Source: an archaeon
Lineage (GTDB): Archaea > EX4484-52 > WAPT01
DNA length: 64,000 bases
Direction: 5' to 3'
NCBI GenBank assembly: GCA_029258795.1
Contig: JAPDKB010000009.1
Location: 22,564-86,563, forward strand
Part shown: in pieces, positions 1,031 through 31,401 of the stretch
Position numbering within the stretch: the stretch's first letter is position 1
Layout of the letters: every line of letters begins with the position of its first letter
Program-made: the position numbers and the translations under genes
Notes under the pieces: model-generated
Seen by the model: the letters and a program-made list of their open reading frames with translations, nothing else
Databases searched by the model: none
Told to the model about the DNA's origin: nothing

Positions 1031-1359
1031 TACGGGAGGGTGGAGTAAGCCCCCTTCTGTTACGCGCGTCATGGCAGCTCCACGAAATTGCTGGAAGGAG
1101 CCACCACCTGATGCGCGCGGAGCATTAGACTGAGCGGGCACAAAACCCTTGCACCTGAGGTGGCGCGTTTCACCCCGCATGAGTGACCTCAGCTCCATGC
1201 ATCATCGCATTTCCTCATGCGGGTGTCGTTTCTGCTCCACCCTCATGCCCTTCCGGCACGGCTCTCTCGAGCCAGCTAACCTGCCTTGTGGCAGGCGGTG
1301 GGGGGACTTTCCTCACGCAGCAGATAATGCTGCGCGATAGCTCCGCACACCCTCCCGCA
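1031..1359 (-). ncRNA. rnpB: RNase P RNA (type A-like)
   Basis: GC-rich segment, ~330 nt. The minus strand reads P1 CGGGAGGGTG...CACCCTCCCG, a P3 hairpin GCGCAGCattatctGCTGCGT, the P4 5' strand GAGGAAAGTCCCCC and the 3' ACAGAAGGGGGCTTAC (P4 pairing AGTCCCCC/GGGGGCTT), with a GGGTGAAAC CR-II-like motif. Confidence 0.75.
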
Positions 1360-5461: not shown

Positions 5462-7044
<1,583 letters not shown>

Positions 7045-19791: not shown

Positions 19792-20007
19792 TCAAAGCTT
19801 GAGATTATGTTTAAAGTTGGCTTTTTCGGCTTTTTCCAGCTCCCATGCATCCTCAAGCAGCATATCAGGAACATCACCATCAAGCACCGGAAATGCAAGC
19901 CTGCAGTTCTCGCAAACTATGAACATGCCCTTCTCAACAACATCTCCCTTGCATTTGGGGCAAGCCAAAATTTCCAGCAGCTTTTTATCCACACCCATGT
20001 GCCGCAC
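19792..20007 (-). CDS. Trm112-like zinc-ribbon protein
   Basis: [15 protein letters not shown]...[26 protein letters not shown]. Confidence 0.65.
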
Positions 20008-20034
20008 CTCAAACTTTCATTCTTTCAAGGATTT

Positions 20035-25645: not shown

Positions 25646-26110
25646 TCACGTTTCTGCCTGTTTTTCTCTCATTTCCTTTAGCTTTTCAACCCTCTGAAGG
25701 AGGTGGGCTTTCGTTCTGAACATACCTCCTTTTGCATGAGCATAAAGCATTCTGTATTCTGTTTGAGTAATCTCTCCCTTATCACGCAGCTCTCTGAGCA
25801 GCTTTCGCAGAGCCCTTATCCTTATCATCCATGCAAGTTTCCTTGGCATCCTTGCCGTCTTTTTACCCTTCCTTGAGCCGTGGCCCTTTCTCCTTCCCTT
25901 CTTCTTCTGCATCTTTATGTGCTTGGCTCTCGCGGTGCTCACCCCAACCTTCGGGAGTACCGCTATCTTACCCTCCCTAATCAGCCTCCTTATATCCTCC
26001 CTGGTTATGGCTTGAGCTACCTCATCAACATGAGCAGGATCTATCCACACTCTGTGAACTCCGCATTTCAGTATCTGTGCGGCCATCCTTTTCTGGGTTC
26101 TTAAATTCAT
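25646..26110 (-). CDS. rpl19e: 50S ribosomal protein L19e
   Basis: MNLRTQKRMAAQILKCGVHRVWIDP. Confidence 0.9.
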   Translation of the reverse strand: MNLRTQKRMAAQILKCGVHRVWIDPAHVDEVAQAITREDIRRLIREGKIAVLPKVGVSTARAKHIKMQKKKGRRKGHGSRKGKKTARMPRKLAWMIRIRALRKLLRELRDKGEITQTEYRMLYAHAKGGMFRTKAHLLQRVEKLKEMREKQAET

Positions 26111-26122
26111 ATCCCATCACCG

Positions 26123-26305
26123 TTAATTGTTTGCAGGCAGTATCTCTTTTTGATGAGCTACGACCACAACCTCTCTGGTGTATTTCATTCCACACCTTTT
26201 ACAGGAATAAACTTTTATGCCCTGCACCTTCATGGTTTCGGCGCGAGCCCCGCACGCAGGGCATATTTCCTCATGAAAGTGAACAAATGGAACATCGATG
26301 AACAT
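26123..26305 (-). CDS. Small CxxC...CxxC zinc-ribbon protein (60 aa) embedded in the r-protein operon
   Basis: EEICPACGARAETMKVQGIKVYSCKRCGMKY. Tight spacing: 13 nt after L32e and 13 nt before L19e. Confidence 0.5.
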   Translation of the reverse strand: MFIDVPFVHFHEEICPACGARAETMKVQGIKVYSCKRCGMKYTREVVVVAHQKEILPANN

Positions 26306-26317
26306 AACTCATCCACC

Positions 26318-27010
26318 TTACTTTTTGCTTTTGGTGGTTGATTTTTTGGTGGTCTTGGAAGAGCTCTTACTTTTTGCTTTTGAACTGCCTGTGGCTTTTT
26401 TGGTTTTACCTTCCACTTTTTCCTTTTTCTTAACCTCTTTCTTCCTCTCATCACCCTTCTTCTCAGCCGTCTTCTTTTCCGCTTTTTTGGCTTTCTCCTT
26501 TACAGCTTTCTTCTCCTCAGCTTCCTCCTCTTCCTTTGTTTCCTCAACCTTCTTCTCTTCCTTCGCCTTTTCCTCCTTCTCTTTCTTTTTCTTCTCCTCT
26601 CTTGCCTTCAATTCAAGATATGAACGCCTCTTTATCCTTGGATTGAGCACTTTGATGCCAAGTTCTTCAGCTTTCTTCAGGATTTCAAGCTTCTTCTTTG
26701 TGCCCACACATGAAGCAACTCTAACAGCTTCCTCTTCCCTGTTAACCCTTTCAAGATCGGTAGGGTTGTAAACAATCACCTCCCTATAACCAGAAGGATG
26801 AAGGTGTCTCGCTTCTTTAGGACCGCCATATCCGGAGCAAGGCATTTTTGGCTTTCCGAATATTCTTTTCCTCATTTTGTTGTGAATTCCCTTCGGTTTT
26901 CTGTAGCCACTCCTGCTTATCTTCTTTATTCTATCTCCTAAATACCTCCTGAATTTGGGCTTCCTCTTCTTTACTTCCTCTCTGAGCTTTACAAGCTCCT
27001 TCATTGCCAT
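26318..27010 (-). CDS. rpl32e: 50S ribosomal protein L32e with a ~90 aa K/E-rich C-terminal tail
   Basis: KPKFRRYLGDRIKKISRSGYRKPKGIHNKMR core; lysine-rich tail. Confidence 0.85.
   Translation of the reverse strand: MAMKELVKLREEVKKRKPKFRRYLGDRIKKISRSGYRKPKGIHNKMRKRIFGKPKMPCSGYGGPKEARHLHPSGYREVIVYNPTDLERVNREEEAVRVASCVGTKKKLEILKKAEELGIKVLNPRIKRRSYLELKAREEKKKKEKEEKAKEEKKVEETKEEEEAEEKKAVKEKAKKAEKKTAEKKGDERKKEVKKKEKVEGKTKKATGSSKAKSKSSSKTTKKSTTKSKK
26430..26555 (-). repeat. ~110 nt segment in the L32e tail near-identical to a segment in the S3 tail (31712-31820)
   Basis: cctctttcttcctctcatcacccttcttctcagccgtcttcttttccgctttttt...ctcctttacagc is shared almost exactly. Both encode ...[29 protein letters not shown].... 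Confidence 0.8.
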
Positions 27011-27999: not shown

Positions 28000-28236
28000 T
28001 TATTCCAGCTTTTTCCACCCCATCTCTTTGGCTACCTCCCTGAAGCATCTTCTGCAGATGTTGAGATCATATTTCCTTATCAAGCTCCTGCCCATGTTGC
28101 CGCATCTTATGCATCTAACCTTTCCATATCCGGTCGTTCTCTCCTTCCTTGTATTGTGTTTTAACACCTTCTTCATCTTTCCCGGCTTGTTCTGGTATAT
28201 TTTCAGGGATTTTCTGAAGTCACCCATAACCATCAC
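28000..28236 (-). CDS. rps14: 30S ribosomal protein S14 type Z (zinc-binding)
   Basis: GYGKVRCIRCGNMGRSLIRKYDLNICRRCFREVAKEMGWKK. The start may be the internal Met21 at 28176. Confidence 0.8.
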   Translation of the reverse strand: MMVMGDFRKSLKIYQNKPGKMKKVLKHNTRKERTTGYGKVRCIRCGNMGRSLIRKYDLNICRRCFREVAKEMGWKKLE

Positions 28237-30376: not shown

Positions 30377-30793
30377 TTACGCTTCTTTCACCACTTCTAT
30401 CACAACAAAGCTCTTGGTTTTGCTTAGCGGCTTACACTCCGCAATTCTAACGATATCTCCTTCTTTAGCGTTTATGCATGGCGGGTTGTGTGCAGCCACT
30501 TTCGTTCTGCAGCGCATGTATCTCTTCAGCTTTTTGATTTTTCTCAAGTATTCCCAACCAACAACAACTGTCTTATCCATTTTGGCTGAAAGCACCACAC
30601 CCTGAAAAATCTTACCCCTTATCTTGAGGTGACCATGATAAGGACATTTTTCATCATTACAAACCTTCTTTGGCGGGTTTTTAACCTCAATACCTATATC
30701 CCTTATTTTTATTTTCACTTCTTTTTTCTTCTCAGCAGTCTTCTTACCACTACTTTCGCTCTTCTTTCCTTTTTGGGCTGTTTTCTCAGCCAT
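30377..30793 (-). CDS. rps17: 30S ribosomal protein S17 (uS17) with a ~30 aa K-rich N-terminal extension
   Basis: CNDEKCPYHGHLKIRGKIFQGVVLSAKMDKTVVV; the N-terminus carries a KKTAEKKKEVKIK motif. Confidence 0.85.
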   Translation of the reverse strand: MAEKTAQKGKKSESSGKKTAEKKKEVKIKIRDIGIEVKNPPKKVCNDEKCPYHGHLKIRGKIFQGVVLSAKMDKTVVVGWEYLRKIKKLKRYMRCRTKVAAHNPPCINAKEGDIVRIAECKPLSKTKSFVVIEVVKEA

Positions 30794-31091
30794 TCAATCC
30801 ACCCCATATTTTTCGTGGAAACCTTTTCTTTATCCTATCTTCGGGCCTGCCCTGAATCACCTTACCATCCACTTCCACCACGCTCCCATCCGGAAGCGTG
30901 AAGTGGAACACACAGTTCTTCTTTTCAACCCTGATCTCCCTGCCATCTCGCTTTCTTATCACAAGCGTGTTTTTCGTTTCATTTATGACTTGCCCTTCAA
31001 CCCCCACAAGCGTGGGGTCACTGCTTTTTACTATTTTAACATCGAGGCCTATGAGCTCATGCCTGACGAGGTTCTCTGGCTTTATTGGCAT
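30786..31091 (-). CDS. rnp1: RNase P protein component 1 (Rpp29/Pop4-like)
   Basis: 101 aa between SUI1 and S17, the conserved archaeal position; HELIGLDVKIVKSSDPTLVGVEGQVINETKNTLVI. Confidence 0.75.
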   Translation of the reverse strand: MPIKPENLVRHELIGLDVKIVKSSDPTLVGVEGQVINETKNTLVIRKRDGREIRVEKKNCVFHFTLPDGSVVEVDGKVIQGRPEDRIKKRFPRKIWGGLNG

Positions 31092-31095
31092 CGGC

Positions 31096-31401
31096 TCACT
31101 CCACTATCGAGCTTTCCGGAAAGCCCTCCTCGATGAGCATCTTTTTGACCTTCAGGCGATGATCTCCCTGCAGTTCTATCTTACCGTCCTTGTAGGTACC
31201 ACCACATGCAAGTTTTTTCTTGAACTTCTTGAGCAGTGATTTGATGTCTATGCTCTTTTCATCAAGCCCTTCTATAATCGTTATGGTTTTGCCGAATTTC
31301 CTCTTTTCCACATAAATTTTAATTTTCTGCTTTTCCCTCGCTATGGTTTCGCAGATGCACAGGTCTTTTGGAAGACCACAAACATTACATATCTCCGTCA
31401 T
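31096..31401 (-). CDS. eif1: Translation initiation factor SUI1/eIF1-like
   Basis: [20 protein letters not shown]...KLACGGT...IELQGDHRL. Confidence 0.8.

Follow-up and report, generated by a model that had tools for sequence, protein, structure and literature searches.

The minus strand of the 64-kb stretch of archaeal DNA analyzed here (the window) carries a 183-nt open reading frame at 26123–26305 that begins with ATG and encodes a 60-aa protein, MFIDVPFVHFHEEICPACGARAETMKVQGIKVYSCKRCGMKYTREVVVVAHQKEILPANN. Its four cysteines follow the pattern CPAC-x16-CKRC (C15-x2-C18-x16-C35-x2-C38); on the basis of the ORF, a six-member alignment, Pfam, and an AF2 model, we describe the product as a stand-alone C4 zinc-ribbon protein and refer to it as ZR. 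Its upstream neighbor is L32e (26318–27010, minus strand; 230 aa; Pfam PF01655, 125 bits over residues 17–123) and its downstream neighbor is L19e (25646–26110, minus strand; 154 aa; PF01280 and PF25476, 91 and 109 bits). The original prediction had placed just such an ORF between these two genes, tightly packed with 13-nt gaps on both sides; the ORF, its motif, its Pfam-confirmed neighbors, and the tight packing are all there, and each gap measures 12 nt, a trivial difference.

Both spacers carry translation signals. The one that runs from the stop codon of L32e to the start codon of ZR (26306–26317, minus strand; GGTGGATGAGTT on the coding strand) contains a GGTG-type Shine–Dalgarno sequence complementary to the 16S 3′ end (...GATCACCTCC), and the one from the stop codon of ZR to the start codon of L19e (26111–26122, minus strand; CGGTGATGGGAT) contains a GGTGAT Shine–Dalgarno sequence serving L19e. 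Homologues show GGTG(A/G) ahead of ZR at the equivalent position, and in one of them (L003) the start codon of ZR and the stop codon of L32e overlap as ATGA. Across the loci, a Shine–Dalgarno sequence precedes every ZR start and every L19e start.

The spc operon around ZR is canonical, with S4e, L5, S14, S8, and L6 upstream and L18, S5, L30, L15, and SecY downstream. It belongs to one nearly continuous minus-strand super-cluster (~12384–36203) that holds S10-spc genes, secY, an EMC3-like gene, L34e, cbf5, alpha-operon genes (RpoD, S9, RpoN), and a probable L14e that has no Pfam match; a similar contiguous layout has been reported for DPANN AR10 (PMC10833476). Several embedded genes do not encode r-proteins—secY, the EMC3-like gene, cbf5, and two translation/RNA-processing factors, SUI1 (31096–31401) and an Rpp29-like ORF (30786–31091), both between L29 and S17—and SUI1 and Rpp29-like genes have been described within the archaeal operon (PMC10833476). 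Adjoining cbf5 is another small zinc protein, encoded by a Trm112-like ORF of 74 aa stop to stop (19792–20016, minus strand; PF03966, 41 bits).

Other features of the window are recorded here in their own right. L32e ends in a lineage-specific, Lys/Glu-rich C-terminal tail of ~100 aa (26318–26635, minus strand; coding-strand purine content 0.80); the protein measures 193–241 aa across the window's lineage, ZR-less members included, and mostly 125–134 aa, up to 181 aa, in other archaeal loci. S14 (28000–28236, minus strand) has 78 aa, with an N-terminal extension of ~30 aa before its Pfam S14 match (residues 32–76), and its homologues in the lineage have 75–76 aa. The 16S rRNA (5462–7044, minus strand) matches, over 1583 nt, a model of 1478 positions, so that insertions of ~100 nt seem likely, and the RNase P RNA (1034–1356, minus strand) lies just downstream of the rRNA operon. 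The rRNA GC content of ~0.60, set against ~0.44 for the genome, suggests a thermophile.

How unusual is an interrupted L32e–L19e junction? We placed the two genes by tblastn in 90 fetched loci, of which 81 came from other archaea (L19e identity 41–61%) and formed an unbalanced background dominated by a few marine groups. In all 81 of these loci, the distance between the end of L32e and the start of L19e was −11 to +24 nt, and in most cases the two genes shared a 4-nt ATGA overlap; those loci of the window's lineage that carry ZR have a gap of 195–280 nt. The order L6-L32e-L19e-L18, canonical across archaea with DPANN AR10 included (PMC10833476), is therefore normally uninterrupted in this sample as well, as the original prediction had assumed.

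ZR is a real gene under purifying selection. An ORF occupies exactly the same position in the contigs from which the most similar L19e proteins come: homologues of 60 aa in L003 and L004, an identical protein encoded by two GTDB metagenome-assembled genomes (MAGs; L011 and L012), and homologues of 67 aa in L005 and in L006/L007. A profile search added two members of 66–67 aa (P0273 and P0275), which lie on contigs equal in size to those of the L19e proteins P0007 and P0005. Two independent assemblies, L001 (Logan) and L002 (ENA), reproduce the window sequence exactly. In the alignment, the six distinct proteins share the four cysteines and 12 other invariant positions: M1, P6, F10, P16, G19, A20, G29, Y33, R37, E45, and the C-terminal N59–N60. 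In Nei–Gojobori comparisons, pS and pN were 0.80 and 0.24 between the window and L003 and 0.82 and 0.19 between L005 and L006; among closer pairs, L003 and L012 differ by six synonymous and no nonsynonymous changes, and L006 and L007 by four synonymous and one nonsynonymous. Synonymous sites of the gene are saturated while its nonsynonymous sites are constrained.

These data bear directly on the reading of the ORF as spurious, or as a conserved noncoding regulatory RNA element. Its shortness and the lack of an annotated name in any source would fit such a reading, but frame, start, stop, and the four cysteines are kept across sequences that are only 33–57% identical, the two MAG-derived sequences differ at synonymous sites alone (6/6), and each copy has its own Shine–Dalgarno sequence. 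We regard a spurious or purely RNA-level origin as effectively refuted. The original prediction had named the lack of a homologue at this position in relatives, together with a lack of expression, as grounds for dismissal; instead, in-frame homologues of 60–67 aa occupy it. We also considered horizontal acquisition, which is unsupported: GC and GC3 of ZR match those of the neighboring genes, and we dropped it on that ground.

The distribution of ZR is very narrow. A profile search of 5.8 billion protein clusters returned six clusters, all from one lineage labeled "Nanobdellati archaeon" (DPANN); a word-indexed search with the single protein had returned only ZR itself. Among 185,579 GTDB species representatives, ZR occurs in one species group, represented by two MAGs, both labeled "Nanobdellati archaeon" (unclassified DPANN). 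Pattern scans with the profile found nothing in JGI metagenome contigs and nothing in viral contigs. ZR is thus clade-specific, confined to a small group of uncultured vent archaea.

Within this group, concatenated r-protein identities of ~70–73% define three roughly equidistant sublineages: {window, L003}, {L005, L006}, and {L008}. The first two carry ZR. In L008, the L32e–L19e spacer (2896–2962) is 61–67 nt long, exceeding the ≤24 nt of 81/81 background loci, and shows no similarity to ZR that we could detect. Complete erosion of a former copy could explain it, or it could be an unrelated sequence; as a remnant it gains no support, its alignment score equaling the mean of shuffled L013 sequences. 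L013 itself, a member of the window's own sublineage with an L19e 86% identical to that of the window, preserves a decayed copy in a 126-nt spacer (L013 976–1115). There, 60 nt at the 5′ end and 50 nt at the 3′ end can be aligned to the window gene (score 86.6; shuffled sequences, 33.5 ± 5.8). A 1-nt insertion (+1 frameshift) leads to a premature TGA after 11 codons, and ~80 nt, including most of the zinc-ribbon core, have been deleted. Because two sublineages carry ZR while L013 holds a decayed copy and L008 has none, we conclude that there was a single gain, that selection has maintained the gene in several branches, and that at least one loss followed, probably two. Being a pseudogene in L013 and absent from L008, it is dispensable, not essential.

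We then asked to which family ZR belongs. The only curated model whose cutoff it passed is PF13453 (Zn_ribbon_TFIIB, "Transcription factor zinc-finger"; 27.7 bits against a cutoff of 22, E = 1.8e-6), which 6/6 members match at E ≤ 0.1. Membership is limited to this generic ribbon domain and implies no shared function. Models for IS1595, Lar, the TnpB/Cas12f ribbon, the TiaS ribbon, L37ae, and others scored below their own cutoffs, PHROGs and PADLOC gave generic ribbon matches only, and two Haloferax families in NCBIfam, HVO_2142 and HVO_0649, were marginal (E 0.1–0.4). An unfiltered single-sequence phmmer search of 1.84 billion representatives returned 1138 matches at E ≤ 1e-3, swamped by multirepeat C2H2 arrays, with P0130 as the only true homologue in the top 150 matches. 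Residues 29–53 (26147–26221, minus strand) mimic one C2H2 finger (Y-x-C-x2-C-x12-H). ZR was rejected as a C2H2 zinc finger: the window protein has H51 as its only candidate histidine, with no second His, and these matches are a search artefact because H51 is not conserved in the family.

The nearest named relative is the ribbon of eL43 (L37ae). When the six-member profile was compared with all PDB sequences, the best nonrepeat match was eL43/L37ae (E = 8.5e-4), and further archaeal and eukaryotic eL43 chains followed at E 0.01–0.5, aligned over the ribbon only. The ribbon alignment pairs QeniCPvCGA...G.kvYsCkRC in ZR with QKHVCPVCGR...GIWQCKKCG in eL43; the PDB match covers chain residues 34–64 of 83, and the Pfam match profile positions 35–62 of 85. 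ZR shares the C4 ribbon, with four invariant cysteines, but falls short of the curated family thresholds: PF01780 gave 14.9 bits against a cutoff of 21.9, with weak matches in 3/6 members, and NCBIfam PRK03976 gave 20.4 bits (E = 3.6e-4) against a cutoff of 87. In place of the basic N-terminal arm of ~30 aa, ZR has 5–13 nonbasic or acidic residues before P-x3-F, and in place of the strongly basic character, a pI of 5.5–8.4 across the six members. COG2888/PRK14890 reached 14.6 bits (E = 0.025) against a cutoff of 61; for eS27 (S27e), the best PDB match had E = 0.55, and S27e is absent from the Pfam match lists shown for ZR. The original prediction had likened the unassigned protein to L37ae, S27e, or COG2888-like proteins and suggested that it could be a lineage-specific, ribosome-associated recruit to the operon. 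The resemblance to the L37ae ribbon holds, membership in any of the three families does not, and the profile searches, yielding six clusters in one lineage and no clear match to a known r-protein family, support the description as an unassigned, lineage-specific protein.

Structure prediction led to a similarly generic picture. The AF2 model built from the six-sequence alignment has a three-stranded ribbon and a short helix, with core pLDDT of 75–83; residues 1–9 and 49–60 fall below 50, although their sequence is conserved. Foldseek searches of the model against the PDB returned nonspecific ribbons only (ZifS, Rpb9/RPC10, aIF2-beta, and TFS4; best E 0.039), and the model superposes on PDB ribbons at 1.2–2.1 Å over ~30 residues.

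Two further properties set ZR apart from its operon neighbors. Its pI of 5.5–8.4 compares with 9.2–11.5 for every r-protein of the operon, and the 67-aa forms have acidic N termini. It is also the fastest-evolving gene of the operon, with homologues 57/37/33% identical to the window protein where neighboring genes mostly show 63–92%; the next most divergent, L32e, shows 50–71%. Position within the operon alone is no proof of a ribosomal role, and we therefore weighed several readings against these properties.

One of them sees ZR as a highly diverged, truncated eL43, either a paralogue or a relocated replacement, acting as a structural r-protein at the eL43 ribbon site or mimicking it. eL43 is indeed the most consistent named family, from the PDB profile matches and PRK03976 to the weak PF01780 hits, and no other eL43-like CxxC...CxxC ORF occurs in the 64-kb window, which is a small part of the genome, nor was eL43 found in the ~2.4 kb recovered beyond it. 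Against this, the subthreshold scores come from the ribbon alone, the C-terminal GGAY segment is missing along with the basic arm, the x16 spacing exceeds that of the aligned eL43 chains by two residues, the protein is near neutral, and the gene is dispensable in close relatives. Zinc-ribbon similarity of this size can also be convergent, and we consider a diverged eL43 improbable. More improbable still is a domesticated or decaying mobile-element ribbon, left behind by an insertion into the operon and derived, for instance, from IS1595 or from the C terminus of TnpB/Cas12f. The matches that would suggest it—Zn_ribbon_IS1595 (22.7 bits), Cas12f1-like_TNB (PF07282; 19.3 bits against 26.3), NCBIfam TnpB (18.1 against 425), and PADLOC Cas12f (E = 1.4e-4)—all score under curated cutoffs, and those of TnpB/Cas12f type occur in 2/6 members only. 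Nothing beside ZR recalls a RuvC domain, a transposase, or repeats, the flanks being just the 12-nt spacers; its composition is native, it is under strong purifying selection across two deep sublineages, and the pattern scan of viral contigs found no relatives.

A role outside the ribosome deserves more weight, though we still judge it unlikely. ZR would then be a small zinc-ribbon regulator or adaptor that profits from how strongly, and in step with growth, the spc operon is expressed; it might, for example, act on RNA polymerase as a TFB/TFIIB-type ribbon, or bind RNA and autoregulate the operon. That generic PF13453 is the sole curated model passed fits this reading, as do the structural neighbors (the Rpb9/RPC10, TFS4, and aIF2-beta ribbons and ZifS, a small bacterial zinc-finger protein) and the presence of the nonribosomal secY, EMC3-like gene, and cbf5 in the same super-cluster; accessory regulators, moreover, typically share its near-neutral charge, rapid evolution, and repeated loss. 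However, the fold matches are nonspecific (Foldseek E ≥ 0.04), our analysis found no DNA- or RNA-binding motif and no partner for ZR, and a mid-operon site with 12-nt coupled spacers between two large-subunit genes would be unusual for a regulator.

We tentatively prefer to see ZR as an orphan, nonessential, peripheral ribosome-associated protein, either an accessory large-subunit protein or an assembly/maturation factor. The presence of SUI1 and the Rpp29-like ORF as other non-r-protein genes inside the operon speaks for this reading, as do the sequence searches, whose nearest named matches were the ribbons of ribosomal eL43; the near-neutral pI, the fastest evolution in the operon, the decay in L013, the absence from L008, and the restriction of matches to generic ribbons speak against it. 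Because ZR combines near-neutral pI and fastest evolution with loss in close relatives, an accessory protein would fit better than a core structural r-protein. The analysis shows ZR to be a real and clade-specific gene that is subject to purifying selection, tightly coupled within the operon, and dispensable; zinc binding, high co-expression, and ribosome association we infer from sequence.

On the preferred reading as an accessory ribosome-associated protein, one insertion into the L32e–L19e junction would have occurred in the ancestor of a small thermophilic DPANN-labeled clade. The product is a lineage-restricted orphan of 60–67 aa with a single four-cysteine zinc ribbon at its center; on either side lies a short conserved tail, the N-terminal one carrying a P-[FL]-x-x-F motif and the C-terminal one closing with [IV]-E-x-x-N-N. 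The gene would now be co-transcribed and translationally coupled with large-subunit proteins, and because of this coupling its output would be expected to be roughly stoichiometric with ribosomes. ZR could dock through the ribbon and the conserved tails, mainly by protein–protein or surface contacts and not by basic rRNA-penetrating arms, and would act at the surface of the ribosome or of a pre-50S particle, with the tails folding on a partner. The AF2 tails, conserved but modeled at low confidence, are as would be expected of such segments. A bolder version, in which ZR is a new large-subunit component of one DPANN-labeled clade, possibly derived from eL43 or taking over its function, with its gene fixed within the otherwise invariant L32e–L19e junction and later lost in some descendants, we hold to be rather unlikely.

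ZR represents a new family of small proteins with a very narrow distribution, and its gene lies at an unusual place within an operon that is highly conserved. Few known gene arrangements are conserved as well as the S10-spc cluster, and in each of the 81 loci from other archaea L32e and L19e lie end to end or overlap. ZR provides an example of the recruitment of an accessory protein to the translation apparatus, and of its loss, in reduced DPANN-type genomes. A ribosomal role is plausible on present sequence evidence, and several properties would favor an optional accessory protein over a core r-protein. If ZR binds the ribosome, it adds a clade-specific archaeal ribosomal protein, and as a new ribosomal component it would offer a snapshot of r-protein gain and loss; if it does not, it shows operon position alone to be a poor predictor of ribosomal function. 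Either outcome would be an incremental result.

Among known systems, eL43 (L37ae) invites the closest comparison. The two proteins have in common the C4 ribbon, a CPxCG first knuckle, a G-[IV]-x-[IV]-[WY]-x-C-x-x-C second knuckle, and a location among ribosomal genes. They differ in that eL43 has the basic N-terminal arm and the C-terminal GGAY segment, neither of which is present in ZR, and in that ZR has the longer cysteine spacing, is near neutral, clade-restricted, and dispensable, and resides in a different operon; the eL43 gene normally lies in an exosome-associated cluster. Generic zinc beta-ribbons such as those of TFB/TFIIB, Rpb9/TFS, and aIF2-beta resemble ZR in ribbon fold and, through the PF13453 cutoff, in sequence, but ZR stands alone as a protein and has conserved motifs of its own at both termini. 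The Haloferax HVO_ families of NCBIfam are likewise C4 zinc-finger proteins of ~60 aa, mostly of undefined role, whereas the HVO_2142 and HVO_0649 genes, unlike ZR, are not embedded in the spc operon. A further parallel is offered by proteins such as aL45–aL47 and aS21, small clade-restricted peripheral components of archaeal ribosomes that proteomics or cryo-EM brought to light. Like ZR, they are small and confined to particular archaeal clades; unlike ZR, which is not basic and is known here from its sequence, they have been seen physically on ribosomes.
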